Below, piece after piece: positions 5,457 to 56,331 of a stretch of 64,000 nucleotides of DNA. The notes beneath the pieces were generated by a model that saw nothing but the letters and a program-made list of their open reading frames with translations, was not told the origin of the DNA and did no database searches. Made by a program: the position numbers and the translations under genes. Source of the stretch: Candidatus Iainarchaeum sp. (lineage in GTDB: Archaea; Iainarchaeota; Iainarchaeia; Iainarchaeales; JAGVWC01); NCBI GenBank assembly GCA_018304465.1, contig JAGVWC010000008.1, positions 108,096-172,095 of the forward strand. Direction: 5' to 3'. Positions within the stretch are counted from its first letter, which is position 1. Every line of letters begins with the position of its first letter.

Positions 5457-5471
5457 AAGAAAGGTGATTCC

Positions 5472-6106: not shown

Positions 6107-6115
6107 CGGATTCCC

Positions 6116-7273: not shown

Positions 7274-7290
7274 CTGTTTATCAACCAAGT

Positions 7291-12282: not shown

Positions 12283-12346
12283 GCGACCGACCAAGACCCT
12301 TTTTTTAATGCCTTCGGAGGCCAAAATCAGTACAAAAAGGATCTTT

Positions 12347-29546: not shown

Positions 29547-32500
29547 ATGACAATTAAGTTCGTGAAAAAGCGAGACGGCCGCGTAGTCGCCTTTAATCAA
29601 GACACCATTACCAACGCGGTCTGGAAAGCCGCCAAAGCGGTTGGCGGAAAAGACAAATCACTGGCGGTCGAATTATCCAGAAAAGTCGTTCACGAACTCG
29701 AAAAAAAATTCCCCGAAAAACACGTTCCCACCGTGGAAGAAGTCCAGGACGCCGTTGAAAAAGTACTGATTGAACAAGGCCACGCGCGAACCGCGAAAGC
29801 CTACATCATTTACCGCCAGCAACACGCCGAAATCCGGCGCGAAAAAGCCCTGGTGCTTGACAAACAAGAAACCGACGAAGTCGACAAACGATTCGACTTA
29901 AACGCGTTACGCGTCTTAAAAGCGCGTTACCTGCGCAAAGACGCCGCGGGAAAAACCATCGAAACCCCAAAAGAACTCTTCACCCGCGTCGCGGTACACG
30001 TACTGATCCCCGAATTGCTCTACGATCCCCGCGTCTTTGACAAAGAAGCGACCCAAAAAACCCACCCCGTGGAGCCGTTTGACAACGTCGAAAACGAATA
30101 CAAATTATCCATTGGAAAATACCAACTCAACCAATACCATCTTGAAGCCCTAAAACGCGTGTACGATAAGTTTTCCCGCCAAGGCAAAATGAAAATGCCG
30201 TGGGGACGATTCTTAGAAATGCTCAAAAACGGAGAATTCGACCAACACGAAACCAGCGGAGACGAATTCTACAGCCTCATGGTGTACAAAAAATTCATGC
30301 CCAATACCCCTGCGATCGCCAATTTCGGAGCGGTCCTTGGAATGGGCAGCGCCTGTTTTGTTATGGATGTCCGCGACAATATCGAAGGCATCATGGACAC
30401 CCTCAAAAACGCCACCATCGTATTCAAATCCGGCGGCGGCGTCGGATACAATTTCTCGAAACTCCGACCCGAAGGCGATTTCGTTTCCACCACCACCGGC
30501 GCGGCCAGCGGCCCCATCTCGTTTATGGGACTGTTCGACAAAATGACCGAAGTCATCAAACAAGGCGGAATCCGCCGCGGCGCCAACATGGGAATTCTCA
30601 ACTGCCTTGCAGGAGATACCGAGATTTCAACCATTGAAGGACGCAAAAAAATCAAAGAACTGGTTGGAACACAACCCCACCTGTACTGCCTAAATGATAC
30701 CAATGAAGTGCGGATCCGGCAAGCGAACCGTGTCATCCACTCCGGCCAAAAAAAACTGGTTCGAATCACCTTCGACGACGATACCCGCATTGATTGCACG
30801 CCCGATCATCGCATCATGCGCTCGAACGGCCAGTATACACACGCCCAAGACCTCCAGCCCCTTGACAGCGTCATGGCGTTCCATAAGAAAATACTCAACG
30901 ACCGCTACTTTATCGGTTCCACTATGAGCCCACTTTCCCCCGAGCACGTCATCGCCACCGAAACCAACAGCAAAGTACTGATCGAGCAGACCGGCCAAAC
31001 ACGATTGTCCAACGACCTGTGCGTCCACCACAAGGACAACAACCCCCTCAATAACCACCCGAATAACCTGCAAGTGCTTACCATTTCAGAACATGCCAAA
31101 ATACACTCCGATGTCCTGATCGAAAACCAAAAAAGAATCGCGATTTCACGGAAAGGAAAAACGATCGAACAGGTTTATGGCAGCGAAAAAGCGGATGCAT
31201 GGAAACAAAAAATGAGCCAAGCACGACGAAACAAAAAACCTTGGAACGCCGGCTCCGACACAGAAGTCTACAAAGCCCATTACAAAAACGGATTCAAGAA
31301 CCAATACGAATACGCCAACGCCAACCACAAAGTGGTCAAAGTCGAACCACTGGAGGGCATTCACGACATCTACGACATTATCATGGACGATTACCACAAC
31401 TTCGTCGCGAACGGCGTCTTTGTCCACAACTCAAACCACCCGGACATCGAAAAATTCATCACCGCCAAAGAAGGCAACAAACAACTCACCAACTTCAATA
31501 TCTCCGTGCTCATGATGCCGGACTTCTGGGAATACTACAACAAAAACGAACCCTACCCCCTGATCAATCCCCGCGACGGAGAAGTCGTCCGAACCGTGAA
31601 CCCCCGCATGCTCTTTGACATGATTGTCTACCAAGCATGGGAAAGCGCGGAACCCGGCGTGATCTTCTACGACAAAGTCAACGAATACAACCCGTTCTAC
31701 GAACACCTCGGACCCATTGTGACCACGAATCCCTGCGTGACTGGAGACACGCGCGTATCCACCGCAAAAGGATTGGAACGCATCGACCAACTTGCACCCG
31801 GCCTAATTACTGTGGATTCGCGTGTAAACGCGCTTTCAAACAAAAGCGGCTCGAAATCGCTCCAACTTGGAACCCAGCAAGGAACCGCAATTCAGGTCAT
31901 TAAAACTGGAACCAAACCCGTGTTCCGAGTGGAAACCACCAGTGGATTTGAAATCAAAGCAACAGCAGATCACAAGATACTGACCCCCCACGGATGGAAA
32001 GCAGTTGAGCAACTGACCGCTGGAAACGAAATACTGATCCAAAGCGGGGCAGGAAAATTCAATTCAGATTCCGCATTACCTTTTATTGTGGAAAATACCC
32101 CCGTCGGAAAAAACGGAAAAAAGTACCGGAATAACCTTCCCGCAAAATGGAGCTACGATCTCGGCCTCGTTATGGGCTGGATGCTCGGCGACGGATGGCT
32201 CAATGATCAAGCGAACCAAGTGGGGCTCGTATTTTCAAAACCGGACTATGAAGCAAAAGAACAGCTCAAACCTATTTTTGAGCATTATTGTAACCGATCC
32301 ATAAAGCTCACCAACAGAGATCAAAGTGCAGTTCAGATCCGAAGCAACAGCAAGTATGTTACAGAGTACTTCTTCAAACTCGGACTCACTTCCGTCGATA
32401 AGGAAAAAGAAGTTCCAAGCACGATTTACACCGCAACCGAAGAGGCAGTCAGAGGATTCCTCAAAGGATTATTTTCTTCGGATGGAACTATTGCGCACCA

Positions 32501-34148
32501 AAAAGAGAGCAGAAACTATGTACGACTAAATTCCAGTTCACTTACATTACTCAAAGGAGCGCAACGATTGCTTCTCAATCTTGGAATCAAAAGTACGATT
32601 TATGATCGCTCAACCGAACCAAAAACATTCAAATACATCACGGCAAAAAACCAAACTAAGCAATATCAAACCAGTGGCGAAAATTATGAGCTAAATATCA
32701 GCAAAGAAAATTTGCCACGCTTTTTAGACAAAATCGGTTTCATTCAAAGCCGACACACCCAGACGGCAGCAAAAATACAACAACACGAATTTTACACTGA
32801 ATATTTTGTTGAAAAAATAAAAACCATCGAGGCTGCCGGCATCGAAGATGTCTACGATCTTACGGAACCGACCACCCATTCATTTATCGGAAACGGAATA
32901 CTGCTACATAATTGCGGCGAAGTATTGTTGTATCCGAACGAAAGCTGTAACCTTGGAAGCGTCAATGTCTGGACGTTTTTCAAAGAAGACGAAGACGGAA
33001 CCCAATACTTTGACTGGGATGACCTCAAAAAAACCGTGCAAACCGCAAGCAAGTTTCTCGACAACGTCATTGACGTGAACAAGTTTCCATTAAAAGCCAT
33101 CGAAGACATGACCGACGCCACGCGCAAAATCGGACTCGGAGTCATGGGCGTCGCCGACTTGTTTTACGAACTCAAACTCCCCTACAATTCCCCCGAAGCG
33201 CGCGATGCCGCCGAAAAACTCATGGAATTCATCAACTACCACAGCAAAGCCGTTTCCATTGACCTGGCCAAAACCCGCGGACCCATGCCCTACAACGACA
33301 AAAGCTTTTACCTCGAAGGCCGGCTCGCGATTTCAGGACCCGAAACCAAAGAAAAACTCCACTTCAACTGGGACGACATCCGCGAAGGATACAAAAAATT
33401 CGGTTCCCGCAACGGCTACAACACCGTCATCGCGCCCACCGGAAGCATCTCCATGATCGCGGGCTGCAGCTCCGGAATCGAACCCGTGTACTCACTCGTA
33501 TTCGAAAAAAACGTCAAAGTCGGAAGCTTCTACTACGTCGACCCCGTCTTTGAACGCATCATGAAACAAGAAGGACTCCACGACAGCAAACTCATGGAAG
33601 ACGTATCCGAAAACGGCGGAAGCATCCAACACATCCCGTATTTGACCAACGAACAAAAACACGTTTTCGTCACTGCCATGGACATCACCCCTGAAGACCA
33701 CATCCGAATGCTCGCCGCGTTCCAACGCTGGTGCGACTCCAGCATTTCGAAAACCAACAACTTTCCGGCCGACGCGACCGTCGAAGACATGCGCGCCAGT
33801 TACCTGCTCGCATACCAATTGGGATGCAAAGACGTTACGGTTTTCCGCGACAGCTCCATCAAAGCCCAAGTGCTGAACGCACCCAAGAAAAAAACCGTGG
33901 ACACGAGCTCGCTCAAACTCGAGGCCAGCAAAGCCCAAACCATGCAAGCGATTTCGCCTTCACCTGCCCCCATAACCCAAACCGCCAAACCCGCGGAAAC
34001 AAAACAAGTCACGGGCCGAAGCACTTCGACAGTCCAGCAACCCAAAAGCAAATACGAAATCACGAACTGCCCCAACTGCAACTCCGTGACCCAAATCAAA
34101 GAAGGCTGCGTCAACTGCCCCGAATGCGGCTGGGGAATGTGCAACTAA
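29547..34148 (+). CDS. nrdJ: Ribonucleoside-diphosphate/triphosphate reductase, class II (adenosylcobalamin-dependent), with ATP cone, two inteins and C-terminal zinc ribbon
   Basis: ATP cone KFVKKRDGRVVAFNQDTI; catalytic exteins ...GANMGILN|SNHPDIEKF... and ...TTNP|CGEVLLYPNESCNLGS; C-terminal CPNCNS...CVNCPECG. Confidence 0.85.
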   Translation: MTIKFVKKRDGRVVAFNQDTITNAVWKAAKAVGGKDKSLAVELSRKVVHELEKKFPEKHVPTVEEVQDAVEKVLIEQGHARTAKAYIIYRQQHAEIRREKALVLDKQETDEVDKRFDLNALRVLKARYLRKDAAGKTIETPKELFTRVAVHVLIPELLYDPRVFDKEATQKTHPVEPFDNVENEYKLSIGKYQLNQYHLEALKRVYDKFSRQGKMKMPWGRFLEMLKNGEFDQHETSGDEFYSLMVYKKFMPNTPAIANFGAVLGMGSACFVMDVRDNIEGIMDTLKNATIVFKSGGGVGYNFSKLRPEGDFVSTTTGAASGPISFMGLFDKMTEVIKQGGIRRGANMGILNCLAGDTEISTIEGRKKIKELVGTQPHLYCLNDTNEVRIRQANRVIHSGQKKLVRITFDDDTRIDCTPDHRIMRSNGQYTHAQDLQPLDSVMAFHKKILNDRYFIGSTMSPLSPEHVIATETNSKVLIEQTGQTRLSNDLCVHHKDNNPLNNHPNNLQVLTISEHAKIHSDVLIENQKRIAISRKGKTIEQVYGSEKADAWKQKMSQARRNKKPWNAGSDTEVYKAHYKNGFKNQYEYANANHKVVKVEPLEGIHDIYDIIMDDYHNFVANGVFVHNSNHPDIEKFITAKEGNKQLTNFNISVLMMPDFWEYYNKNEPYPLINPRDGEVVRTVNPRMLFDMIVYQAWESAEPGVIFYDKVNEYNPFYEHLGPIVTTNPCVTGDTRVSTAKGLERIDQLAPGLITVDSRVNALSNKSGSKSLQLGTQQGTAIQVIKTGTKPVFRVETTSGFEIKATADHKILTPHGWKAVEQLTAGNEILIQSGAGKFNSDSALPFIVENTPVGKNGKKYRNNLPAKWSYDLGLVMGWMLGDGWLNDQANQVGLVFSKPDYEAKEQLKPIFEHYCNRSIKLTNRDQSAVQIRSNSKYVTEYFFKLGLTSVDKEKEVPSTIYTATEEAVRGFLKGLFSSDGTIAHQKESRNYVRLNSSSLTLLKGAQRLLLNLGIKSTIYDRSTEPKTFKYITAKNQTKQYQTSGENYELNISKENLPRFLDKIGFIQSRHTQTAAKIQQHEFYTEYFVEKIKTIEAAGIEDVYDLTEPTTHSFIGNGILLHNCGEVLLYPNESCNLGSVNVWTFFKEDEDGTQYFDWDDLKKTVQTASKFLDNVIDVNKFPLKAIEDMTDATRKIGLGVMGVADLFYELKLPYNSPEARDAAEKLMEFINYHSKAVSIDLAKTRGPMPYNDKSFYLEGRLAISGPETKEKLHFNWDDIREGYKKFGSRNGYNTVIAPTGSISMIAGCSSGIEPVYSLVFEKNVKVGSFYYVDPVFERIMKQEGLHDSKLMEDVSENGGSIQHIPYLTNEQKHVFVTAMDITPEDHIRMLAAFQRWCDSSISKTNNFPADATVEDMRASYLLAYQLGCKDVTVFRDSSIKAQVLNAPKKKTVDTSSLKLEASKAQTMQAISPSPAPITQTAKPAETKQVTGRSTSTVQQPKSKYEITNCPNCNSVTQIKEGCVNCPECGWGMCN
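30603..31430 (+). mobile_element. Intein 1 in RNR (276 aa) carrying HNH endonuclease motif
   Basis: Begins CLAGDTEI, ends VFVHN before Ser+1; internal HHKDNNPLNNHPNNLQVLTISEHAKIH HNH box. Confidence 0.8.
31734..32912 (+). mobile_element. Intein 2 in RNR (393 aa) with LAGLIDADG homing endonuclease domain
   Basis: Begins CVTGDTRV, ends ILLHN before Cys+1 (CGEV); motifs MGWMLGDGWL and LKGLFSSDGTI. Confidence 0.85.
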
Positions 34149-34189: not shown

Positions 34190-34792
34190 TTAGCCCAAAT
34201 GCTTCGTGCAATTGAGCACCGAAAAATGCGGTTTTTTTCCCTCTTCGATTTCGAGCACTGAAACGGCGGTGTTCTTCGGGTGGATTTTATGAAATTCCTC
34301 TAATGTGGGTTCAAGCTCGAAAAAAAACGCAATTAATGTGGACATCCAGACACCGTGACCAACCAAAAGAACAGTTTGATTTGAATGCTTTTTTTTAAGT
34401 TCTTCAATTAAGTCTAATGCTCTTTTCTGGGCATCCAGAAAAGATTCGCCGTTTTTGGTACGATGCTTCGCATATGGAACACCGGATTCCTGACGCTCTT
34501 TTCGGATAACGCTTAATGGAAGACCCACAGCGTCTCCAAGAGAACGCTCGCGCAGCAGGGGCGAGTAAACCGGTTTGAGCTCGAAATGAAATTTCAAGAT
34601 TTCCTTTGCGGTTTCGACCGCGCGTGGATAATCGCTCACGTACACCGCATCGATTTTCTCGTCCTTGAGACGCAACGCGAGTTTTTTTGCTTGGTTAATT
34701 CCAAGAATAGTCAAGGGATCATCGGCGTCTTTTCCAATGTCCTTGACATTACACTCGGTTTCGCCGTGCCGGACCAAAATGAGTCGCAACAT
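34190..34792 (-). CDS. Histidine phosphatase (phosphoglycerate mutase family)
   Basis: LVRHGETECN RHG catalytic motif; 200 aa. Confidence 0.75.
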   Translation of the reverse strand: MLRLILVRHGETECNVKDIGKDADDPLTILGINQAKKLALRLKDEKIDAVYVSDYPRAVETAKEILKFHFELKPVYSPLLRERSLGDAVGLPLSVIRKERQESGVPYAKHRTKNGESFLDAQKRALDLIEELKKKHSNQTVLLVGHGVWMSTLIAFFFELEPTLEEFHKIHPKNTAVSVLEIEEGKKPHFSVLNCTKHLG

Positions 34793-34842
34793 GAAGAAAT
34801 CTGAATCCCATTCTTTTTAAGAATTCCCCCGCAAAATTATTT

Positions 34843-35112
34843 GGGCCAGGTGAGGGGGCTAGCGGTCCCCTGTACCCGAAATCCGCTTCATGCGGGAACC
34901 CACGCTGTCAAAACGTGAATTGGGCTTGTACCAAAGCCATTGTTTGGACGACGACCCTTTGTCCTAAAAGGTCGATGGCAATTGCCAACCCGCCAGGTTC
35001 GGAAGAAAGCAACGGTACCAATCGTCTTCGATGCTTTTAGACCGCAGAGGCGAGGAAAAACAATGGACTAAACTTTGGGACAAAACCAGTGCGCTATTTG
35101 GCAGCGGCCCAC
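34843..35112 (+). ncRNA. ffs: Signal recognition particle RNA (7S/SRP RNA)
   Basis: Helix 8 signature GCCAGGUUCGGAAGAAAGCAACGGUACC at 34990-35018; 5' GGGCC and 3' GGCCC ends can pair; GC-rich, ORF-free; located between two protein genes. Confidence 0.7.
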
Positions 35113-35119
35113 TTGAAAA

Positions 35120-36341: not shown

Positions 36342-37061
36342 TTAGCGTTTTGTACCCACCGTAAAACCATTGGCCAATTCTAACATTACCGTTTTAGGAT
36401 CTGCCACGGGCACAACAGCAGCTGCCAAAAAAACCCCTTTTGTTCCGAGTGCAAGCGATGCACGGGTATCTTCCGAAGAAGCAACTCCCGCACCCATAAT
36501 CGGGATCACCGAGTCATTCACAGAAAAAATCGCTTTAACGGACCTAGCCACTAAATCCGGATCCACACGCGAAATCGATTTTAATGTTCCGATCAGTTCC
36601 GGAAGTTCAATTGCTAAAAAATCAGGCGAAAATTCCGCAATTGAACGCGCACGCGAATCGTTTTCTGCGCACGCCAAAACCTCAAGACCGATGCCGTGCG
36701 ATCGTTCAATCACCGCACGAACCACTTCATCTGAAACCGGATCCTCCGCGTGATTAACCACCACTCCCGCAGCACCGGCTTCTTTTAGCGCTTCAGGCAA
36801 AATTTTTCCGTTTCCTTTTCCAAATGAAACCGGATCCACGTGCTGAGAAAAAACCGGGACCGAAACCGAAGACGCCACCAACCGCACGTCCACCGGAGAA
36901 ACCACCGGAACAATTGACACCCCGGTCTTTTTGGCCACTTCCTGGCACAATTTCGCCAATGTTAGCGCATTTTTTCCAAACCCTTGCTGATAAACCTTAA
37001 AATTCACAAACAAAACCGGCAATTCCACCACGATCTCACCCCAAAAAATAGGGAAAAACAC
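36342..37061 (-). CDS. tpiA: Triosephosphate isomerase (archaeal type)
   Basis: VLFVNFKVY, VVNHAE, PIMGAGVASSEDTRASLALGTKGVFLAAAVV signatures. Confidence 0.75.
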   Translation of the reverse strand: MFFPIFWGEIVVELPVLFVNFKVYQQGFGKNALTLAKLCQEVAKKTGVSIVPVVSPVDVRLVASSVSVPVFSQHVDPVSFGKGNGKILPEALKEAGAAGVVVNHAEDPVSDEVVRAVIERSHGIGLEVLACAENDSRARSIAEFSPDFLAIELPELIGTLKSISRVDPDLVARSVKAIFSVNDSVIPIMGAGVASSEDTRASLALGTKGVFLAAAVVPVADPKTVMLELANGFTVGTKR

Positions 37062-37096
37062 TATTTAAGGGTTTTTGGAACCACTACATTAATACC

Positions 37097-38944
37097 ATGC
37101 AATACGCCCACCAAACCGGGGAAGACCTCTTAGAAAAAGTCCGCAACAGCCATTTTTCGTCGGAAATACCGCTGATTCGAAAAGCGCTTGAAAAAAACAA
37201 ACCTCTTCCCGAACACACCCGAACGCTTGCCATCGACACGGCAAGCACGTTGACCCAATTTGGATTCGGAAAAACGGCCGTCTGCGCGGCACTGCTTCAA
37301 TTCCACGATCTTGAAACCCTCAAAGGCGAATTCGAATCCGAAATACTGGAACTGGCCCACGGACTGCAAAAAATCGAGCGCGTGAAAGCCAAGAACCGGG
37401 GAAAACTATCCCCGGAATCACTGCAAAAAATCATTCTGGCCTTGTCACCGGATCCCCAAATCATCATCATCTGGATCTGCAAAAAACTCGTGGAACTGAG
37501 GTTTTTGTCCGAACAACCCAAAGACGAACAACTTCCGCTGGCCGAAGACGTGCTCAATCAATGGGTCCCCGTTATTCACAAACTCGGGCTGCACAAAATC
37601 CGGTGGGAAATCGAAGATCTGGCCATGAAAAAAATCCTGCCCAAAGAATACAAAGCCATCAAAGAATACCTCAACGACAAGCGAAACACGCGACAAGAAA
37701 AAATGCGCGAACTCGTCGAAAAACTCCGATCCGCGCTACAAAAAGCCCAACTTGAAGCTGTGGTATTCGGACGCGTCAAAAACTTTTACCGCATTTACAA
37801 AAAAATGAACGAACAAAAACGAAACCTGAAAGACATCCACGATTTGATCGGCGCGCGCGTCATCTGCAACAGCGTAAACGAGTGCTACGAAACACTTGCC
37901 GTGATCCAGAACTCCTTCAAACTCGAAACCCAAGGATTCGATGATTACATCCAAAAACCCAAAAAAACAAAGTACCAATCCATTCACGTCGACCTGGACT
38001 GGAAAGGAATACCATCCGAAATACAGATTCGAACCTGGGAGATGCACAAAGAAGCCGAAGAAGGCGTCGCCGCGCACTGGGAATACAAACAATACAAAAA
38101 AGACCCGACGTTTGACCGGCACTTAACGATTGCCAAACAACTGGCGGAATGGTTCGACCAAGTACACCACAAAAGCATCATGGACTCGCTGAACCTAAAA
38201 TTCGAAAAAAACAAAATCTTCGTTTTAACCCCAAAAAGCGAACTCGTGGAGCTGCCCGAAAAAGCCACCCCCGTCGATTTTGCGTTTGCCGTGCACACAG
38301 AACTCGGATACAAATGCGAAAAAGCCCGCGTGAACGGAAAAATCGTCCCGCTCGATTACCAACTCCAAAACGCGGACAGCGTCGAAATCATCACCAGCGA
38401 AAAGCAAATTCCAAAACAACACTGGTTAACGTTTGTTCAAACCGAAAAAGCGAAACAAAAAATCCGAACCAAACTGAACATCGTTCCGACAAAACCCGAA
38501 AAAGAAAAAAAAACCGGAATCGTAAAAGCGACGTTCCGGAAAAACGCGCAGTTCCTTCCCGCCAAATGCTGCTCGCCGATTCCGGGCGATGAAATCGTCG
38601 GGCACAAAACCACGAAACGAAAAATAAAAATCCACCGGATCGACTGCCCCAATGCCCAGCGGATACCCGAAGACGAGCGACTGACACTATCCAACGCATC
38701 GTTCACTCAAAAAGAATTCGAAACCACGCTGCGAATCAACGTGCACAACCAGCCGGGAGTACTCTCCGAAATACTGGACGCCATCGGCAAACACGATACC
38801 AAAATCATTTCCACCGAAGCCGTTACGCACGCGCACTCAATCACATGCCGATTCCGCATCAAAACAAAAAACAGGAAAACCTTCGAGCAAACCGCCGAAC
38901 GCGTACAGAAAATCAAAGGGATTATCGACGTACAACGCGGATGA
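37097..38944 (+). CDS. Long RelA/SpoT homolog (partly degenerate HD, synthetase, TGS, ACT)
   Basis: AALLQFHDLE HD remnant; synthetase DLIGARVICNS...YQSIHVDL...EIQIRTWEMHKEAEEGVAAHWEYK; TGS IFVLTPKSELVELPEKATPVDFAFAVHTELG; C-terminal ACT-like. Confidence 0.75.
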   Translation: MQYAHQTGEDLLEKVRNSHFSSEIPLIRKALEKNKPLPEHTRTLAIDTASTLTQFGFGKTAVCAALLQFHDLETLKGEFESEILELAHGLQKIERVKAKNRGKLSPESLQKIILALSPDPQIIIIWICKKLVELRFLSEQPKDEQLPLAEDVLNQWVPVIHKLGLHKIRWEIEDLAMKKILPKEYKAIKEYLNDKRNTRQEKMRELVEKLRSALQKAQLEAVVFGRVKNFYRIYKKMNEQKRNLKDIHDLIGARVICNSVNECYETLAVIQNSFKLETQGFDDYIQKPKKTKYQSIHVDLDWKGIPSEIQIRTWEMHKEAEEGVAAHWEYKQYKKDPTFDRHLTIAKQLAEWFDQVHHKSIMDSLNLKFEKNKIFVLTPKSELVELPEKATPVDFAFAVHTELGYKCEKARVNGKIVPLDYQLQNADSVEIITSEKQIPKQHWLTFVQTEKAKQKIRTKLNIVPTKPEKEKKTGIVKATFRKNAQFLPAKCCSPIPGDEIVGHKTTKRKIKIHRIDCPNAQRIPEDERLTLSNASFTQKEFETTLRINVHNQPGVLSEILDAIGKHDTKIISTEAVTHAHSITCRFRIKTKNRKTFEQTAERVQKIKGIIDVQRG

Positions 38945-39515
38945 CTCGCGGCGACGAAACCAATCGAAGAACCTCGTTGACGCTTTGTTCCACCGTCTGG
39001 TTCGAAGTGTCGATTTCGACGTCGCACAATTCCCGAAAATCCGAAACCATCGAATCGAAAAAACGCCGGTTCACGAGCAAACGTTTTTCGTCCCGAGTCA
39101 AATGAGAACGCATCTTGAGGCGTTTTTTAACGGTTTTGTAATCCGCATACAAATGAATCGAAAGCGTCGGTTTTTCGAGGGAAATGTTCTCCAGAATCCG
39201 CAAAACACCCGGCATTTTCCGCTCGTACGCATCCACGACCAAAGTCGGGAAAAACCGGTCGCAAATAATGTTTTTCTTTCCGCGTTTTTTCACGCGGGCG
39301 GACGTATCCACCACCGCTTCCAGATAAAAAACCAGGTTCAAAAACCCGTTGTCATCCCGAAGCGACATCGAACGACGCTGCTTCAATTCCGCGGACGGAG
39401 TAGACACATAAGACCAGCCTTTGAGCGCGGAAATCTTTCGCGCAACGGTTGTTTTTCCGACGCCATCGACGCCTTCCAAAACAAAAAAAGAGCTTTTGCG
39501 CATATACAAGTACAA
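38922..39515 (-). CDS. Thymidylate kinase-like P-loop nucleotide kinase (second Tmk-family gene in window)
   Basis: FFVLEGVDGVGKTTVARKI P-loop and CDRFFPTLVVDAYE DRY-like box. Confidence 0.55.
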   Translation of the reverse strand: MYLYMRKSSFFVLEGVDGVGKTTVARKISALKGWSYVSTPSAELKQRRSMSLRDDNGFLNLVFYLEAVVDTSARVKKRGKKNIICDRFFPTLVVDAYERKMPGVLRILENISLEKPTLSIHLYADYKTVKKRLKMRSHLTRDEKRLLVNRRFFDSMVSDFRELCDVEIDTSNQTVEQSVNEVLRLVSSPRVIRVVRR

Positions 39516-39547: not shown

Positions 39548-40342
39548 ATGGAAAAGGTTAATAAAACAATAAACAATAAACCTACGATGATTCCGCTTGA
39601 AATAAAACGCATCAAAACAGGCATCACCGGTCTTGACGACTTGATGGAAGGCGGATTTCCGCAAGGACGCAGCGTACTCGTATCCGGCGCATGCGGAACC
39701 GGAAAAACCATTTTTTGCCTGCAGTTCCTATACAGCGGCGCCAGAAAATTCAACGAACCAGGAATTTACGTTACGCTGGATGAACGACCCGATCTGATCC
39801 GCGAAGACATGCTGCGCTTCGGATGGGATCTCCACGAACTCGAAGAAAAAAACCTTTTACAGATCATCGACGGAAGCATCGCCAAAATCGGAATTCCTTC
39901 CGAAGAAATCTTTTCCCTGCCCGTCACCGGATTTGATTTGGACAAACTCCTGCTTGAAATCATGCGGGTATCCAAGCGCATCAACGCCAAACGCGTCGTT
40001 ATCGACTCCATTCCGGCACTTGGATTCAACTATGAAAATGAAAACGAAATCCGAAAAGCGATTCTCAAACTATCCTACATGCTCACCCGCGCCGGCGTCA
40101 CAAGCCTCATGACCAGCGAAATCGACGAAGCAAGCAACCGGTTCGGGAAATACGGCGTCGAAGAATACGTCGTTGACGGCGTACTGGTGCTTCATTACAT
40201 GGGCGTCGGAACACAAGCCAACCGAACGCTTCACATCCGAAAAATGCGCGCGACCGCGCACAGCGAAGATCTTCACCCCATGGTTATCAGCAAAGAAGGC
40301 GTATCCGTTCACTCGATCGACGACGAATACAAACAAACCTGA
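39548..40342 (+). CDS. KaiC-like RecA-superfamily ATPase
   Basis: TGITGLDDLMEGGFPQGRSVLVSGACGTGKTIFCLQFL and later KaiC-domain features; 264 aa. Confidence 0.7.
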   Translation: MEKVNKTINNKPTMIPLEIKRIKTGITGLDDLMEGGFPQGRSVLVSGACGTGKTIFCLQFLYSGARKFNEPGIYVTLDERPDLIREDMLRFGWDLHELEEKNLLQIIDGSIAKIGIPSEEIFSLPVTGFDLDKLLLEIMRVSKRINAKRVVIDSIPALGFNYENENEIRKAILKLSYMLTRAGVTSLMTSEIDEASNRFGKYGVEEYVVDGVLVLHYMGVGTQANRTLHIRKMRATAHSEDLHPMVISKEGVSVHSIDDEYKQT

Positions 40343-40564
40343 TTTTCGATTAATGAAAAAAAACCAACTGCCGCGCACCCAAAAATTCGACGTCATCGTA
40401 CGCGGCGAAGACCTGATTACACGCCTTAATCGCGGAGGATACTCGGTAAAAACCCAGTCTTACGGAGACTACCGAATGCTACCGACCGCCAAAAACAACG
40501 CATAAACCCTTAGTTGAGAGGCTGGGATTTAAAATCGTTCTTGCGCCCAATTTTAACGGTAAAA

Positions 40565-42058
40565 ATGCCCGAAAAAAACGATTTGGTTGAAAGCAAACTA
40601 GGTCATTTGAAAACGCTGCGGGAAAACGGAATCAACCCCTATCCGTATCACTTCGAAGCTAACGCCACGTCTCAACAGCTTCACCAGAAATACGAATCCT
40701 TGGCCGCAGCCGAAGAAACCCAAGAAACCACTTGCATCAGCGGCAGAATCAAAATCATCCGAAGCTTCGGAAAACTCGTTTTTCTTGACGTATGGGACCA
40801 CACCGGAAAAATACAAGTACAAGCCAAAGAAGACGAAACCGACAAAGAAAGCCTTTTTATCGTTGAAAACCTTGATCCCGGCGACTGGATCGGAATCGAA
40901 GGACGCATCATCAAAACCAAACGCGGAGAACTCACGGTGCTCGCCAAAAAATTCACGGTCTTATCCAAAAGCATCCAGCCGCTTCCCGAAAAATGGCACG
41001 GCCTCACCGACACCGAAACGCGCTATCGACAACGACACCTCGACCTGATCATGAACCCCGAAGTCAAACGCGTATTCGAAAAACGCAGCCAAATCATCAA
41101 AACCGTCCGCGAATACCTGGACCAACATGGATTCGTCGAAGTCGAAATCCCGTCGCTCCAACCGGTTTACGGAGGCGCGAACGCCAAACCATTCAAAACG
41201 CTTTCCAACGCCCTCAAACAAGAGTTATACCTCTCGATCTCGCCGGAACTCTACCTCAAACGCCTCATCGTCGGGGGATTCGACAAAGTGTATTTTTTGG
41301 GCAAGAGTTTTCGCAACGAAGACATCGACAAAACCCATAACCCCGAATTCACGATCATGGAATGTTACGCGGCCAATTGGGATTACAACGACATGATGAA
41401 ATTGTTCGAGGACATGTACAATTACGTGGCCAAAAAAGTGACGGGAACCACCCAAATCGAATACGACGGAACCATCGTCGATCTCAAAGCACCTTGGCGA
41501 CGACTTCCCGTGAAACAAGGCCTCAAAGAATACGCCAACATCGACGTTGACAAACTCAAAGACGCGGAACTGATCAAACTCGTCAAACACCATGCACCCG
41601 ATTACGACGGTCCCCAAATCAGAGGACTACTCATCGCCGAATTATTCGAAGCCCTCGTCGAAGAAAAACTTGGAAAACAACCCGTGTTCATCACGGACTA
41701 CCCTGCCGAAACTACGCCGCTATGCAAAGCCCATCGCGACAATCCCGAACTGATCGAACGATTCGAACCGCTTGTCAACGGATGGGAAGCGGGCAACGCA
41801 TACAGCGAACTCAACGACCCCGTGCTCCAGCGAAAACTGCTTGAACAACAAGCCTCGGAAGGACGCGCCGGCGGAACCGCCGAACCCGTCGACGAAGACT
41901 TCATCAACGCCATCGAATACGGAATGCCCCCAACCGGCGGACTCGGCGTCGGAATCGACCGCATGGTCATGCTGTTGACCGGACAATCCACCATCAAAGA
42001 CGTCGTGCTCTGGCCGCTGATGAAAAACAAGGAAGAAAAAAAGCCAGAAACGAAATAA
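40565..42058 (+). CDS. lysS: Lysyl-tRNA synthetase, class II
   Basis: Anticodon-binding OB (KLVFLDVWDHTGKIQV), motif 2 FRNEDIDKTHNPEFTIMECY, motif 3 GGLGVGIDRMVMLLTG. Confidence 0.8.
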   Translation: MPEKNDLVESKLGHLKTLRENGINPYPYHFEANATSQQLHQKYESLAAAEETQETTCISGRIKIIRSFGKLVFLDVWDHTGKIQVQAKEDETDKESLFIVENLDPGDWIGIEGRIIKTKRGELTVLAKKFTVLSKSIQPLPEKWHGLTDTETRYRQRHLDLIMNPEVKRVFEKRSQIIKTVREYLDQHGFVEVEIPSLQPVYGGANAKPFKTLSNALKQELYLSISPELYLKRLIVGGFDKVYFLGKSFRNEDIDKTHNPEFTIMECYAANWDYNDMMKLFEDMYNYVAKKVTGTTQIEYDGTIVDLKAPWRRLPVKQGLKEYANIDVDKLKDAELIKLVKHHAPDYDGPQIRGLLIAELFEALVEEKLGKQPVFITDYPAETTPLCKAHRDNPELIERFEPLVNGWEAGNAYSELNDPVLQRKLLEQQASEGRAGGTAEPVDEDFINAIEYGMPPTGGLGVGIDRMVMLLTGQSTIKDVVLWPLMKNKEEKKPETK

Positions 42059-46232: not shown

Positions 46233-47015
46233 TTAAAAGCGTTGAGTCCTAAGACTCAGTTTTTCCGCAGTTTTGGCTAAACGCCACTGTTTGACAGGGT
46301 GCAAAAATAAGTGATTTTCCGCCAAAAAAACAATATCAGAAAAACGTTCCACTTGAATATACGCCGAAACGTTATTTGGATCCAAATAAGGACCGTTCAT
46401 TTTCAGTCCGAAAGCCGATTCGAAAAGACTTTTCACTTCACGAATAAACGGGATACATTTCATTCGAATTTTGACGCGAGGGGCAGATTTAAATCCACCT
46501 TCTACGGCACGTGTGTCTCCCTCCGCGTCAAATAAACCCCGCAAAAACCACCGTTGTAATTCCACTGGAGCGTTCCAGACCACAGCAGGGGCATGTAATG
46601 AATTCGTCTTTGAACCGCACGGAAGTTCAAAAAGAACAGTCAAAAATAAATACACCCGCTTACTTGTCGGGTTGATGTACAGCGTTCGTTCCCCTTTACT
46701 TAAACGCTCATAGCGAATAGGGGGACAATCGCCAAACAAATCAGAATACAACGATTGAATAAACATCATCTGAGACTCAAATTCGTCCGCGATGATCATC
46801 TTGTACTCCCGACGGCGGGAAACCAAATATGAACGCTCGACATTCTTTAATCCACCGTCACCGAAGAAATAACCAGCAAAATACGCGAGTTTTGGCGAAA
46901 GCTCCGTTGGGCAGTTTGCAAATTCATGACTTGGTAAAGAATCAATCGGACTTGCGGGACAGAAAGGATCAACCAATTCGGATTCCGAAATAAAGCCATA
47001 AGCTGTTCGAAGCAT
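46233..47015 (-). CDS. Free-standing LAGLIDADG homing endonuclease
   Basis: Two dodecapeptide motifs LAYFAGYFFGDGG and LRGLFDAEGD; no intein splice boxes at the termini. Confidence 0.75.
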   Translation of the reverse strand: MLRTAYGFISESELVDPFCPASPIDSLPSHEFANCPTELSPKLAYFAGYFFGDGGLKNVERSYLVSRRREYKMIIADEFESQMMFIQSLYSDLFGDCPPIRYERLSKGERTLYINPTSKRVYLFLTVLFELPCGSKTNSLHAPAVVWNAPVELQRWFLRGLFDAEGDTRAVEGGFKSAPRVKIRMKCIPFIREVKSLFESAFGLKMNGPYLDPNNVSAYIQVERFSDIVFLAENHLFLHPVKQWRLAKTAEKLSLRTQRF

Positions 47016-47082: not shown

Positions 47083-47168
47083 CGGGCTCAGTGGGGATCG
47101 AACCCACGATCACTCGGTTGCTCCAAGAACCTAAGAGCCGAGTGCTTTACCGGCTAAGCTATGAGCCC
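47083..47168 (-). tRNA. tRNA-Lys (CTT) with 13-nt anticodon-loop intron
   Basis: GGGCTCA TA GCTT AGCCGGTA AAGC A CTCGG CTCTTA[GGTTCTTGGAGCA]A CCGAG TGATC GTGGG TTCGATC CCCAC TGAGCCC G; anticodon assignment depends on exact intron boundaries. Confidence 0.55.
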
Positions 47169-47173
47169 AAATG

Positions 47174-47245
47174 CGAGACCGGTGGGACTCGAACCCACAG
47201 CCCACGGGTTAAAAGCCCGTTGCGCTACCATTGCGCCACGATCCC
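47174..47245 (-). tRNA. tRNA-Lys (TTT)
   Basis: GGGATCG TG GCGC AATGGTA GCGC A ACGGG CTTTTAA CCCGT GGGCT GTGGG TTCGAGT CCCAC CGGTCTC G; acceptor has two G-U pairs. Confidence 0.75.
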
Positions 47246-54222: not shown

Positions 54223-56331
54223 TCATAGGCTATCAAAAGGACTCTTCACTTTTTTCAGTTCTTCCGTTCGCACCGTGGTGTAAATCTGGGTGGTGTTCAG
54301 ATTTGCATGACCCAACAATTCTTGGATCTTTCGAATACTTTCTCCCGCTTCCAGCAAATGCGTGGCGTATGAATTGTGTACTACAAAACCATCCGCAAAC
54401 AGATTTTCTGTTCCAGCCACGGTAAAATCATACACTGGGACGGTATCCCGCACTGGCAGGATCTTGGTTACTTCCATCCATTTGTAGTTCTCTCCCAATA
54501 ATGAACGAATCGCATTGCGTTCTTCCAAAAAATCCGGTTCTTTTTCGATTTCGTGCAAAATTTTCGCGACCGTCTCTCGGACCGGAATGATTTTTCCCGT
54601 GTAGCGCTTCAAATGCTTAATTCCTTGCCGGGTTTGCAAACGATAAATAAATCCCCGCTGTTGCAGCAGTTTTGGGTACATCTTTTTCAAAATCAAATGT
54701 GCCGGGATCCACTCTCCCACGGAATCGTTTTCAATTCGAAGTTTTTTTTGGGTTGGGATCAGCAACTCAAACAACACTTGGTCCGGACGGCGAAGAATGA
54801 ATAATTCAAAAATTGTGTGCGAAATAATTCGGCCTTGAGGCAACTTCACTTTTCGATCTCGCTGATGAAAATACGAATTGATTCCAAGTCGCAGCAAAAG
54901 AACCTGCACATCCTTTAGCAATTCTTTACTAGTAGAAAAAAAGCGCGGAACCCCCTCGTTCCCGTCTGCGTCATACAAACCTGCCAGAAATTCGCATACT
55001 TCTTCAGTGCTTGCCGAGAATAACTCCATTGGTATCCGCTTCGTAGGCGCCCGCCTGTCCATATCCAGTAACTGACAGGTGTGCACCAAATCAACAGAAT
55101 AATACGCCAACTCAAACGAGTTTCTTCCATGCGTCGGGTGAATAAACGGTCGCTTTCCAAACTGTTGCTCCAAAAGCGATTGGTAAAACTGCAAAAACGA
55201 AAGGTTCTTATCACAAATCACAACCCCACGCCGACTATCGCTTATGGTTCCGTCTCCTAACGCATATCCCACAAAACGCCACCAGGCCGGAGATGCACGC
55301 CGGGTTTCCGCAATCGTAACTTTTTTGGGGCCCAGCACAAAATCGCCGGGCTTTAAATCTTTGGCACATGCTTCCCCAAGGCCATACACAGTCGCTACAA
55401 AAAAACGATGCTCTGGCGTGCATGTTAACAAATAACCACCCGCATTGACTTCGAGAAGCCCTTCTGCATACTGCATGAACGCACCCACCAACGGGGCATT
55501 GATCACGTGTTGTGTGTTCCATTCAAAGCTTCGAACCAAGGTGCCTTTTCCGGAAAACAAAGCCTGCGCGGAAACAATTCCATTCGAAGTAAAAATCCGA
55601 GTATTCGCTTCTACACAGTGACGCATGCTGTGCGGCGTCACTTCTTTTTGAATTCCCGCCTTGGCCGCCGCTTTGCGAATAATACGCTGAATGGTATCCA
55701 CCGAAATGGATGTCCCGGTAGTTTTTTTGGAGAACACAAACTCGCTTGAAACTTTTTTTCGCTTCAAATAGCGCTTCAGATCCGACACCCAATTCTTGGA
55801 CAAGATAATGATACGGTCCTTGTTTCCTTTGCCGCCTTTCACTCGGCCGATAAACTCGCTTAACTCGAGGTCCGCGACCTTGAGTTTGACGGCTTCGCTT
55901 ACGCGCACGCCGGACGAATACAAAAATTCGACAATCAAACGATTACGCCCCTTCTTGGTCGCTTTGATCAACGCTTTTACTTCGGCCTTGGTGAGAACGG
56001 TCGGGAGCTTTTTGGCTTTTTTCATGGCGCGCACGTCTTCCATGATTTTTAATTTTAAAAAATTTCCAAAAAAGAATTTGAGCGCCGAGTGCGCCAATGC
56101 CAAACTCGAATTCGAAATATTTTCTTTCTCCTTGCGGTTCGCGATGTATCCCACGATATCCGCTTTTTCGGTTTCTTCCACGGGCTTTTGGAGCGACTTC
56201 AAAAAATCCGAAACCAAAAACAGATATGTTTTGATCGTCTGCTTCGAGTACCCCGTGACGACCAGTTCCTGGCGAAAACGCGTCAGCATTTCCTGGTTAT
56301 GCGGCAAAATTTCCGAATCCGTTTCGCTCAT
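54223..56331 (-). CDS. xerA: XerA/XerC-like tyrosine recombinase interrupted by an intein
   Basis: N-terminal core-binding domain; catalytic exteins ...TPHSMRH|SYATHLLEAGESIRKIQELLGHANLNTTQIYT (R-H-R-H-Y boxes) flank a 415-aa insertion. Confidence 0.8.
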   Translation of the reverse strand: MSETDSEILPHNQEMLTRFRQELVVTGYSKQTIKTYLFLVSDFLKSLQKPVEETEKADIVGYIANRKEKENISNSSLALAHSALKFFFGNFLKLKIMEDVRAMKKAKKLPTVLTKAEVKALIKATKKGRNRLIVEFLYSSGVRVSEAVKLKVADLELSEFIGRVKGGKGNKDRIIILSKNWVSDLKRYLKRKKVSSEFVFSKKTTGTSISVDTIQRIIRKAAAKAGIQKEVTPHSMRHCVEANTRIFTSNGIVSAQALFSGKGTLVRSFEWNTQHVINAPLVGAFMQYAEGLLEVNAGGYLLTCTPEHRFFVATVYGLGEACAKDLKPGDFVLGPKKVTIAETRRASPAWWRFVGYALGDGTISDSRRGVVICDKNLSFLQFYQSLLEQQFGKRPFIHPTHGRNSFELAYYSVDLVHTCQLLDMDRRAPTKRIPMELFSASTEEVCEFLAGLYDADGNEGVPRFFSTSKELLKDVQVLLLRLGINSYFHQRDRKVKLPQGRIISHTIFELFILRRPDQVLFELLIPTQKKLRIENDSVGEWIPAHLILKKMYPKLLQQRGFIYRLQTRQGIKHLKRYTGKIIPVRETVAKILHEIEKEPDFLEERNAIRSLLGENYKWMEVTKILPVRDTVPVYDFTVAGTENLFADGFVVHNSYATHLLEAGESIRKIQELLGHANLNTTQIYTTVRTEELKKVKSPFDSL
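54373..55617 (-). mobile_element. Intein in tyrosine recombinase (415 aa) with LAGLIDADG domain
   Basis: Starts CVEANTRI after MRH, ends VVHN before Ser+1; motifs FVGYALGDGTIS and LAGLYDADGNEG. Confidence 0.8.

Follow-up and report, generated by a model that had tools for sequence, protein, structure and literature searches.

A compact long RelA/SpoT homologue with a degenerate hydrolase domain in a DPANN archaeon

Here, we describe a complete gene for a long RelA/SpoT homologue (RSH) in a 64-kb stretch of archaeal DNA (the window). Our analysis suggests that its product is a compact long RSH that descends from a bacterial bifunctional Rel, entered the DPANN archaea long ago and has been inherited vertically since, and that it is most likely a RelA-type ([hS]) enzyme with synthetase activity alone. 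We assign this reading a probability of roughly 0.7.

Results

The gene codes for a full-length long RSH

The gene and the domains of its product are the following:

37097..38944, + strand, complete long-RSH gene, 615 aa plus stop (ATG-to-stop ORF, Pfam, NCBIfam, PDB phmmer, AF2, Foldseek)
37097..37681, + strand, predicted pseudo-hydrolase (HD-like) domain, residues ~1-195 (HD_4 47 bits, AF2 fold, motif mapping)
37769..38098, + strand, (p)ppGpp synthetase (RelA_SpoT nucleotidyltransferase) domain, residues 225-334 (PF04607 124.5 bits)
38216..38395, + strand, TGS domain, residues 374-433 (PF02824 67.8 bits)
38405..38554, + strand, alpha-helical (AH) stub: one helix (441-460), then a Lys/Pro-rich disordered linker (alignment gap, AF2)
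38555..38701, + strand, zinc-finger/ribosome-intersubunit (ZFD/RIS) domain, residues 487-535 (invariant Cys/His, PF28438)
38708..38938, + strand, ACT (RRM-like) C-terminal domain, residues 538-614 (PF13291 ACT_4 50.5 bits)

The gene product is a genuine full-length long RelA/SpoT homologue that contains HD_4, RelA_SpoT, TGS, zinc-finger/RIS and ACT domains. In Pfam, RelA_SpoT (PF04607) matches over positions 1-112 of its 113 with 124.5 bits (cutoff 27, E=3e-36) and HD_4 scores 47.1 bits against 27.2 (residues 39-165); RelA_AH_RIS (PF19296) matches weakly, with its RIS part alone (residues 435-522), and RelA_RIS (PF28438) is precomputed on an identical protein and on every homologue. In phmmer searches of the PDB, the protein matched Rel (8fr8) with 6.7e-93 and E. 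coli RelA (5iqr) with 1.8e-82. The AF2 model has a pLDDT of 84.8 and a pTM of 0.74, and its best Foldseek matches are RelA, Rel and SpoT with RelA first at 7.6e-35. Thus, Pfam, PDB phmmer, AF2 and Foldseek agree on a long RSH with intact synthetase, TGS and ACT domains, as had been proposed from the sequence in the first-pass annotation, and the domain search placed the synthetase region in the RelA_SpoT family and not in a different nucleotidyltransferase family. With TIGR00691 (spoT_relA), the protein scores 442.7 bits (E=2e-132), i.e. below the NCBI cutoff of 499.2, because of a deletion in the AH domain and the degenerate HD domain, while homology itself is secure. Identical copies of the protein are present on eight ENA metagenome contigs, the longest of 164 kb. 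The sole match in a scan of GTDB genomes, using exact-peptide patterns that were too specific, was a Desulfovibrionaceae Rel with 36% identity.

The synthetase residues are invariant and the charge motif is acidic

The synthetase motifs GARVICNS, YQSIHVDL and EIQIRTWEMHKEAEEGVAAHWEYK, which had been picked out in the first reading of the sequence, are all present and canonical for RSH synthetases. An alignment of 81 homologues shows no variation at R226, K228, K236, D249, R254, D283, Y293, H297, E308 and Q310, and the same ten residues are present in 30 of the 30 sequences in an independent metagenome sample, giving about 110 relatives altogether. R226, K228, K236, D249, Y293, H297, E308 and Q310 align with a constant offset of 15 to R241, K243, K251, D264, Y308, H312, E323 and Q325 of RelSeq, which we take to be its catalytic and ATP/GDP-binding residues, and they do not vary across 81 + 29 sequences. 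The charge motif reads G280-F-D282-D283 as opposed to R-F-K-D (RxKD) in bacterial Rel. At this position, D predominates in archaeal sequences that have lost the HD motifs (see below) and K in those with intact HD motifs, and FDD is present in five of five HD-lost, AH-containing (RelA-like) sequences. Judged from these alignments, the change from RxKD to GFDD is a RelA-like charge switch.

The enzyme would make (p)ppGpp by moving pyrophosphate from ATP onto the 3'-OH of GDP/GTP. Alternatively, the synthetase may be active but make another product by (p)ppApp synthesis or tRNA 3'-end pyrophosphorylation, and not be part of a ppGpp alarmone system. Some small RSHs (FaRel2/CapRel/Tas1) carry out these chemistries on the same fold. 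Moreover, (p)ppGpp synthesis has been shown in no archaeon (PMC8646023), and there is no hydrolase nearby: an HD-domain HMM applied to all 707 window ORFs of at least 50 aa matched the RSH only, no partner alarmone hydrolase was found in the 64 kb, and Pfam scans of ~45 window genes found neither SAH nor Nudix. However, the protein nests among long RSHs, with Foldseek matches to small alarmone synthetase (SAS) structures at ~1e-6 compared to 1e-35 for RelA; the residues common to (p)ppGpp-making Rel/RelA are invariant, including the equivalent of the guanine-stacking Tyr (Y293); and the regulatory C-terminus typical of a housekeeping Rel is kept apart from most of the AH domain. On balance, we regard a product other than (p)ppGpp as unlikely.

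The C-terminal sensor module is conserved but lacks most of the AH domain

The TGS domain is the most conserved domain of the clade (identity 0.60), and its H400, which aligns to H432 of E. coli RelA, is invariant in the homologue alignment and in the metagenome sample. The same is true for C491, C492, H513 and C517 of the ZFD, and in the AF2 model the ACT domain has a beta-alpha-beta-beta-alpha-beta fold. By contrast, ~80 residues of the AH domain, which lies between TGS and the zinc finger in bacterial Rel/RelA, are deleted. Accordingly, PDB alignments break at residues 458/487 as opposed to 545/662 in Rel, and residues 466-482 have a pLDDT <50 in the AF2 model. Over 262 sequences, the length of the linker from TGS to ZFD is bimodal with either 20-39 aa or 100-120 aa, and the protein described here belongs to the short mode. 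Counted by elements, four of five of the C-terminal regulatory region are present, and the AH domain is reduced. In bacteria, the AH domain helps to position RelA on the ribosome. Because this domain is deleted and the ribosome is archaeal, it is uncertain that activation by the ribosome follows the canonical route.

A KaiC-like ATPase gene is a frequent neighbour

Two genes next to the RSH gene were considered:

38922..39515, - strand, dTMP-kinase-like P-loop kinase gene, overlapping the 3' end of the RSH gene by 23 nt
39548..40342, + strand, single-domain KaiC-like ATPase, conserved neighbour of the RSH gene (PF06745 258 bits)

Among the nine sampled loci with HD-degenerate RSH, the KaiC-like gene is directly downstream of the RSH gene in eight (L002, L005-L008 and L013-L015), and the ninth is the window, in which the antisense kinase-like gene lies between the two. 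This kinase-like gene separates them only here, is missing at L002 and L005-L008, and is not considered part of the RSH system. A His_Phos_1 phosphatase gene at 34190-34792 has a counterpart near RSH at L005 but none was seen at L002, these being the two closest orthologous loci.

One explanation for the adjacency is that RSH and the KaiC-like ATPase form a module in which the ATPase either gates the synthetase or is itself the target of the alarmone, and in which ribosome sensing is replaced or supplemented. In line with this, the KaiC-like gene is missing in all three HD-intact archaeal loci, and no more than ~4.5 kb separate the RSH gene from the KaiC-like orthologue in 51 of the 58 metagenome loci that are informative, despite four different arrangements. 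However, many loci have unrelated insertions (a CARDB-like surface protein, an ABC-transporter cassette or, in the window, the antisense kinase), and nine loci are convergent, arguing that co-transcription is not required. An obligate RSH-KaiC operon is ruled out by these insertions and convergent arrangements, leaving a looser association. Also, the region RadA...TIM...LysRS...SerRS-Trm56-TFE is collinear in the phylum, and the proximity may, therefore, be historical. Finally, the KaiC-like protein evolves far more slowly than RSH (61-86% compared to 35-66% identity between orthologues), as an independent housekeeping gene would. Overall, we find a dedicated RSH-KaiC module improbable, and whether the KaiC-like ATPase is part of the RSH system is uncertain.

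The hydrolase active site is lost in a folded HD-like domain

The N-terminal HD domain is most likely a folded pseudo-enzyme that would have lost hydrolase activity. In the AF2 model, the HD-like region is all-helical with a pLDDT of ~90, and the N-terminal half of the model fits the NTD of T. thermophilus Rel (6s2u) with a TM of 0.80 and 2.9 A. When the hydrolase motifs of Rel are mapped onto the protein, the upstream His corresponds to L44 and HD to Q68 F69, ED is deleted, and ADRLHN corresponds to C128 K129 K130 L131 V132 E133 with loss of DxxHN; in the PDB, B. subtilis Rel and RelSeq align only past the HD...ED segment. In the metagenome sample, the hydrolase-motif positions vary freely inside the clade. 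Within-clade identity over residues 39-110 is 0.31 compared to 0.60 for the same segment in bacterial Rel, and constraint on this segment is relaxed. The suspicion that the hydrolase domain is defective was, therefore, well founded, and the loss is more thorough than originally claimed because the upstream His, HD, ED and DxxHN are all gone. On the other hand, the first-pass annotation held that an HD dyad (in LLQFHDLE) is kept. The letters are there, but H70-D71 sits two residues off the catalytic H-D column (i.e. Q68-F69) and is shared only with the closest homologue (P0002), while P0003 has SELPA and P0004 has YRTPF. With this offset and lack of conservation in close homologues, H70-D71 is a coincidence and is ruled out as a remnant active site.

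These data also bear on the idea that the protein is a bifunctional Rel with synthetase and hydrolase activity, as suggested by the public names of several homologues ([quoted passage not shown]), the above-threshold HD_4 match and the well-folded HD-like domain. However, each class of HD active-site residue is substituted or deleted, the motif positions are free to vary within the clade, and the clade lacks precomputed PF01966 (HD) matches while the HD-intact archaeal relatives have them. For these reasons, we consider it very improbable that the protein is bifunctional.

The gene belongs to a large archaeal clade and was acquired long ago

The AH deletion is a feature of a large archaeal clade that comprises 114 of the 262 sampled sequences. 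In a neighbor-joining (NJ) tree from which the AH region was left out, the AH-less sequences (n=114) and the HD-degenerate sequences (n=93) each form an exact clade with weak exact-match bootstrap values of 62/200 (31%) and 40%, respectively; the phylogeny is by NJ only and the bacterial sample consists of the best-scoring sequences. The point-estimate NJ tree (bootstrap 31-40%) together with the shared deletion suggests a single origin of the AH-less clade. The closest named homologues of the protein are from Diapherotrites and Micrarchaeota MAGs.

The first-pass annotation considered long RSHs to be very rare in archaea. This is true only of cultured archaea; as of 2011, small alarmone synthetases and small hydrolases were the only known archaeal types (Atkinson 2011, PMC3153485). 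More recently, RelA/SpoT was reported to be widespread in DPANN, with a share of 69% in Diapherotrites, 41.7% in Woesearchaeota, 21.3% in Pacearchaeota and 19% in Nanoarchaeota, and was inferred to have been acquired from Bacteria (Li et al. 2021, mSystems, PMC8407392). Our searches found at least 114 distinct archaeal-type RSH sequences.

That the host is an archaeon, as had been assumed, is supported by an Archaea_SRP RNA at 34839-35114 (118 bits), ~2 kb upstream of the RSH gene, and by window genes of archaeal type (TIM, XerA, Dph6, S19e, aIF6, prefoldin, GGGP synthase, RadA and RPA). A candidate archaeal promoter element precedes the gene:

37054..37071, + strand, putative BRE/TATA-like promoter element AAAAACACTATTTAAGG (read from the sequence)

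The TATA-like TATTTAAG is centred ~31 nt ahead of the RSH ATG and, therefore, a leaderless or very short-leader archaeal transcript seems likely. A near-identical element, AAAAACA(A)CTATTTAAGG, is present upstream of the RSH orthologues in L002 and L005. Alternatively, the element could serve the divergent TIM gene.

The synteny RNR-TIM-RSH-KaiC-LysRS is kept on contigs of up to 831 kb while RSH identity ranges from 35% to 66%, the GC content of the RSH gene is 0.478 compared to 0.483 for the window, and all 13 genomic contexts inspected (the window and 12 homologue loci) are archaeal. Gene order and GC content agree with those of orthologous contigs as long as 831 kb, and the gene is, therefore, an old acquisition that became fixed and was then inherited vertically, and not contamination. 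Thus, the suggested horizontal transfer holds in so far as the gene has a bacterial origin, but the transfer was not recent here, given synteny down to 35% protein identity and a GC content equal to that of the genome. Although the RSH family is overwhelmingly bacterial (3686 clusters), the notion that the gene is an artefact, i.e. bacterial contamination, a chimeric assembly or a very recent transfer without a role in the archaeon, is already refuted by the same archaeal neighbourhood in independent JGI, NCBI, ENA and Logan assemblies, by the nearby archaeal SRP RNA, by a GC content like that of the neighbours and by purifying conservation on the functional residues.

Discussion

A model for a hydrolase-dead RSH in DPANN archaea

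In the model that we favor, a bifunctional Rel from a bacterium would have entered the DPANN archaea long ago and then been passed on vertically in a Diapherotrites/Iainarchaeota-like lineage. The bacterial sensor module recognizes uncharged tRNA on the stalled ribosome by its 3' end. Because the TGS His, the zinc finger and the ACT domain are conserved, we suggest that the C-terminal sensor module still gates synthetase activity in the archaeal protein; starvation may, therefore, be sensed through tRNA and the ribosome, with the flexible basic linker standing in for the alpha-helical spacer. The alarmone would be degraded by another enzyme encoded elsewhere in the genome. Bacteria are poisoned by a synthetase that has no hydrolase to counter it, and the fact that no alarmone hydrolase gene was found in the window is a counterpoint to the reading of the protein as a hydrolase-dead synthetase. 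The pattern in the clade, with a decayed hydrolase site next to strict conservation of synthetase and sensor residues, is best explained by use as an alarmone synthetase. The earlier suggestion of a (p)ppGpp alarmone system operating in this lineage is plausible.

More tentatively, and with less than even odds in our estimation, DPANN archaea may run a genuine stringent-response-like system. In this scenario, the AH spacer would have been lost first in an archaea-adapted Rel, which then gave rise to hydrolase-competent and hydrolase-dead forms, convergent with the RelA/SpoT split in proteobacteria. On archaeal ribosomes, the dead form would sense uncharged tRNA, perhaps in concert with the KaiC-like ATPase. 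So far, (p)ppGpp signalling counts as a trait of bacteria and plastids, and ppGpp is not known from any archaeon (PMC8646023); if the scenario is correct, (p)ppGpp would act as a second messenger in the archaeal domain as well. The gene is a clonable candidate for testing archaeal (p)ppGpp synthesis, and also for testing whether starvation could be read by a Rel-type factor on an archaeal ribosome in the absence of the helical spacer, and the clade may represent a natural second example of RelA-like sub-functionalisation. The surprise is moderate in view of the published presence of RelA/SpoT in DPANN and the routine automatic annotation of homologues.

Comparison with known RSH systems

Bacterial bifunctional Rel proteins (M. 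smegmatis/M. tuberculosis 8fr8/5xnx, B. subtilis 6yxa, RelSeq of S. equisimilis 1vj7 and T. thermophilus 6s2u) have the same domain order HD-SYNTH-TGS-ZFD-ACT, are the best sequence matches and the fit for the NTD of the model, and have all signature residues of the synthetase, TGS and ZFD in common with the archaeal protein. They are most likely the ancestor type. By comparison, the archaeal protein has lost the hydrolase motifs and ~80 AH residues, has GFDD in place of RxKD, has an N-terminus that is ~15-25 residues shorter and resides in an archaeal host.

Like the monofunctional ([hS]) E. coli RelA (5iqr, 5kpv), in which a pseudo-hydrolase N-domain is combined with an active synthetase, the archaeal protein combines a pseudo-hydrolase with a predicted synthetase. 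In both, RxKD is replaced by an acidic xxDD motif (EFDD in RelA), both have the conserved TGS His and a Cys/His zinc finger, and E. coli RelA is the first Foldseek match of the model. By analogy, the archaeal protein probably works in the same way; however, it has lost the AH domain, and no SpoT-like partner was found in the window. Orthology to RelA is ruled out (NF008124, 300.1 bits against a cutoff of 728; actinobacterial and firmicute Rel outscore RelA in the PDB) and, therefore, hydrolase loss would be convergent with that in proteobacterial RelA. Orthology to SpoT is also ruled out (NF008303, 313.8 bits against a cutoff of 947; hydrolase motifs missing).

The HD-intact AH-less archaeal Rel proteins (P0055 from Woesearchaeota, P0051 and P0061) are likewise compact (633-680 aa) with the AH deletion, are found in archaeal contexts and are sister to the HD-degenerate subclade in the NJ tree. 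Unlike the protein described here, they have kept H...HD..ED and DRLHN and, mostly, RxKD, and the KaiC-like gene is missing from their neighbourhood. Small alarmone synthetases (RelQ/RelP/YjbM) share the synthetase fold (NF053588, 1.8e-10) but are single-domain proteins without HD, TGS, ZFD and ACT. The DPANN RelA/SpoT proteins of Li et al. 2021 (PMC8407392) are of the same family and from the same organisms. While that work gives presence and absence only, the data reported here distinguish hydrolase-dead from hydrolase-intact subgroups and add the AH deletion, the charge switch and the conserved gene neighbourhood.

Domain architecture and host of the RSH gene

The gene studied here encodes a long RelA/SpoT homologue (RSH):
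37097-38944 (+), RSH, 615 aa
In the ORF listing, it is a single frame from ATG to stop, and its product carries five Pfam domains in the order of a canonical long RSH.

Pfam domains of the RSH protein
Residues 39-165, HD_4, 47.1 bits
Residues 225-334, RelA_SpoT, 124.5 bits
Residues 374-433, TGS, 67.8 bits
Residues 435-522, RelA_AH_RIS (RIS part), weak
Residues 538-614, ACT_4, 50.5 bits

The top NCBIfam model is TIGR00691 spoT_relA (442.7 bits, E=2e-132; under the curated cutoff of 499.2), and the protein scores far under the cutoffs of the RelA-specific (300 bits, cutoff 728) and SpoT-specific (314 bits, cutoff 947) equivalogs. Against PDB sequences, phmmer matched mycobacterial Rel (8fr8, 6.7e-93), Escherichia coli RelA (5iqr, 1.8e-82) and Bacillus subtilis Rel (6yxa, 7e-82). 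The AlphaFold2 model (input alignment n=81) is confident (pLDDT 84.8, pTM 0.74); its first Foldseek matches in PDB are ribosome-bound RelA (7.6e-35), B. subtilis Rel and full-length SpoT, and its N-terminal half superimposes on the Thermus thermophilus Rel NTD 6s2u with a TM of 0.80 at 2.9 A. Thus, ORF, domain order, phmmer and structure prediction agree on the full-length RSH proposed in the first-pass annotation, and its family assignment stands, the domain search having returned RelA_SpoT for the region. The database representative of the protein differs from it by W314C (codon 314, 38036-38038) within the synthetase motif EIQIRT(W/C)EMH, a site that varies across the family.

The contig is archaeal and RSH is a resident gene. 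An archaeal SRP RNA lies 2 kb upstream of RSH, and the window encodes an archaeal-type TIM, a TrmB regulator, XerA, Dph6, S19e, aIF6, prefoldin, GGGP synthase, RadA and RPA, with inteins in SRP54, RNR and XerA.
34839-35114, archaeal SRP RNA (Rfam, 118 bits)
The identical RSH protein is found on eight ENA metagenome contigs, the longest of 164 kb, and the closest named homologues are from Candidatus Diapherotrites and Micrarchaeota MAGs. In independent JGI, NCBI and Logan assemblies, with contigs of up to 831 kb, the order RadA ... NAD kinase - RNR - TIM(-) - RSH(+) - KaiC-like(+) - LysRS ... SerRS(-) - Trm56 - TFE-alpha recurs around RSH homologues of 35-66% identity. The GC content of the gene (0.478) equals that of the window (0.483), and a BRE/TATA-like element, AAAAACACTATTTAAGG, lies ~31 nt before the ATG and also upstream of two orthologues. 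Because the contig markers are archaeal and exact copies, conserved synteny, GC content and the promoter-like element all speak for residency, contamination and recent transfer are ruled out.

Intact synthetase and degenerate hydrolase domain

Both the synthetase and the sensor modules are intact. R226, K228, K236, D249, R254, D283, Y293, H297, E308 and Q310 are invariant among 81 homologues, and all ten recur in 30/30 members of an independent set recovered via the neighbouring gene (29 complete genes). Eight of them correspond, by a uniform shift of 15, to RelSeq R241, K243, K251, D264, Y308, H312, E323 and Q325 (1vj7 numbering). TGS residue H400, aligned to E. coli RelA H432, and zinc-finger residues C491, C492, H513 and C517 are likewise invariant in both sets. 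These residues and the Pfam scores bear out the synthetase, TGS and ACT regions noted in the first pass.

By contrast, the hydrolase domain is very probably a pseudo-enzyme, predicted to be hydrolase-dead. Where the bacterial Rel consensus (alignment n=120) reads H-(24)-LLHDxxEDT and ADRLHNMRT, the protein has LAIDTA, then LLQF(HD) with 4-6 residues missing after it, and CKKLVELRF. The upstream His is replaced by L44, HD by Q68-F69, D by K129 and HN by V132-E133, while ED is deleted. The lost His and the defective hydrolase suspected from the raw sequence are thereby supported by alignment, and the loss extends to the HD, ED and DxxHN-type residues. The HD dyad then thought to be retained is not the catalytic one: H70-D71 lies two residues out of register and is shared with the nearest homologue only, its place being taken by SELPA in P0003 (a homologue of 58% identity) and by YRTPF in P0004. 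With B. subtilis Rel and with RelSeq, the phmmer alignment sets in only past this segment (residue 72 matching residue 87). Even so, a good fold is predicted for the domain (pLDDT ~90), and the helices at its C-terminal end that pack against the synthetase domain remain conserved; conservation of residues 39-110 is about half that in bacteria (0.31 vs 0.60).

The charge motif reads G-F-D-D where bifunctional Rel has RxKD. Among 262 sequences, each of at least 560 aa, this position is mostly D in those that have lost the HD site and mostly K in those with an intact one, and FDD is present in 5/5 HD-lost bacterial-type (RelA-like) sequences; both are raw counts that ignore kinship.

An archaeal clade lacking the AH region

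Only ~25 Lys/Pro-rich residues separate the first AH helix from the zinc finger, and residues 466-482 have a pLDDT <50. In the same 262 sequences, linker lengths have two clearly separate modes (20-39 residues in 114, 100-120 in 129). An NJ tree built without the linker region recovers the 114 short-linker sequences as an exact clade, and likewise the 93 among them whose HD domain is degenerate. Because exact-clade bootstraps are just 62/200 and 80/200, respectively, a single origin is carried by the point tree together with the shared deletion. Archaeal contexts also surround short forms with an intact HD site (e.g. P0055, labelled Woesearchaeota) at three loci, with split RpoB/RpoA'/RpoH, TFB and aIF2-gamma, and aIF6 and LonB as the respective markers. 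The short-linker type makes up ~53 of the best 150 50%-identity clusters in an exhaustive representative search. Judged from these sequences, the missing AH region marks an archaeal clade, and the family is large.

The KaiC-like neighbour

Downstream of RSH, on the same strand, lies a gene for a single-domain KaiC-like ATPase at 9/9 HD-degenerate loci sampled, directly so at 8/9 (L002, L005-L008, L013-L015), and at 0/3 HD-intact archaeal loci. In the window, one antisense kinase gene intervenes, as it does in this genome only:
38922-39515 (-), dTMP-kinase-like P-loop kinase, overlapping the RSH 3' end by 23 nt
39548-40342 (+), KaiC-like ATPase
A metagenome search with the KaiC-like alignment gave 58 informative loci (L016-L095 range), and at 51 of these RSH adjoins the gene or lies within ~4.5 kb, in four arrangements.

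Position of RSH relative to the KaiC-like gene (58 loci)
Directly upstream, 23
One surface-protein gene between, 13
ABC-transporter cassette between, 6
Convergent, downstream, 9
No RSH nearby, 7

The inserted genes encode either a secreted protein of ~400 aa, anchored at its C terminus and carrying Ig/CARDB-like repeats, or a MacB-type ABC transporter cassette (L065 4677-5993; L076 4748-5956; L056 2319-3530; L054 6791-8083(-); L035/L049 1.7-6.0 kb). These insertions, the inversions and the much slower evolution of the KaiC-like protein (61-86% identity between genomes vs 35-66% for RSH) speak against an obligate operon. The proximity persists through rearrangements, which is notable; a functional link would be an improbable reading, and we regard it as a lead.

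Other features of the window

19203-20240 (+), 345-aa ORF, weak GGDEF match (27.4 bits vs cutoff 23.8), YGGDEL motif
34190-34792 (-), His_Phos_1 gene between RNR and TIM, 2.3 kb from RSH
40514-42058 (+), LysRS, class II
12308-15505 (+), 29547-34148 (+) and 54223-56331 (-), intein-bearing genes
46233-47015, free-standing LAGLIDADG ORFs
47083-47168 (-), 86-nt tRNA (Rfam, 61.6 bits; missed by ARAGORN)
47173-47245, tRNA-Lys(UUU)
60036-62180 (+), 714-aa fusion of asparagine synthase (AsnB-type glutamine amidotransferase) and archaeal diphthine-ammonia ligase Dph6

The GGDEF-type ORF could encode another nucleotide-messenger enzyme of bacterial type on this archaeal contig. His_Phos_1, conserved in L005 (7557-8159(-)) and not called between RNR and TIM in L002, is the only phosphatase-type enzyme near RSH, and no finding ties it to alarmone turnover. 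The LysRS beside the KaiC-like gene belongs to class II in the window, L002, L005 and L008. The same position holds a class I enzyme (PF01921) in L006 (11019-12635), L013 (8714-10321), L014 (8904-10502(-)) and L015 (8709-10331(-)), which looks like non-orthologous displacement in situ within one lineage. The intein load is unusual, with one in SRP54, two in RNR (one HNH, one LAGLIDADG) and one in the XerA recombinase; the L005 RNR orthologue (4933-7527, 864 aa) is intein-free, and L008 RadA (289-2871) contains an intein. By eye, the 86-nt tRNA resembles a tRNA-Lys(CUU) whose anticodon is followed directly on the 3' side by an intron, and it adjoins tRNA-Lys(UUU). Strand asymmetry is strong and uniform and goes with mostly + strand genes: on the + strand, A exceeds T in most 2-kb windows from 2 to 54 kb (AT skew up to ~+0.44, falling to around zero or slightly below it at either end), and C exceeds G everywhere (GC skew between about -0.04 and -0.23).

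Discussion

Archaea were described as being without long RSH (Atkinson et al. 2011, PMC3153485), and (p)ppGpp is not known from any archaeon (PMC8646023). [quoted passage not shown] 2021, PMC8407392). Because of this report and the automatic NCBI annotation of many homologues, the family in DPANN is already known; the 69% and the short-type clusters also speak against the first-pass view of such enzymes as very rare in archaea. In the searchable literature, we found no description of an architecture without AH, of separate hydrolase-intact and hydrolase-dead subclades, of a convergent switch to a RelA-like charge motif or of the conserved neighbourhood.

We suggest that the protein is most likely a RelA-like monofunctional alarmone synthetase, which would make (p)ppGpp from ATP and GDP/GTP; we put the probability that it is a (p)ppGpp synthetase at about 0.75. 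An alarmone-degrading enzyme, of which none was found within the 64 kb window, would have to be encoded elsewhere. The TGS-ZFD-ACT module would gate synthetase activity. In bacteria, the same module senses both the CCA terminus of an uncharged tRNA in the A site and the space between the ribosomal subunits. Because its ribosomal partners (A-site finger, uS19, uL16) are, to our knowledge, universal and the extended 25-residue linker could bridge the distance otherwise spanned by the AH domain, coupling to the ribosome is possible in an archaeon; activation by ribosome/tRNA is a tentative proposal, with the odds somewhat against it. In its linker the protein differs from bacterial Rel/RelA, in which this stretch spans ~105-115 residues; its charge motif resembles the E-x-D-D of monofunctional RelA.
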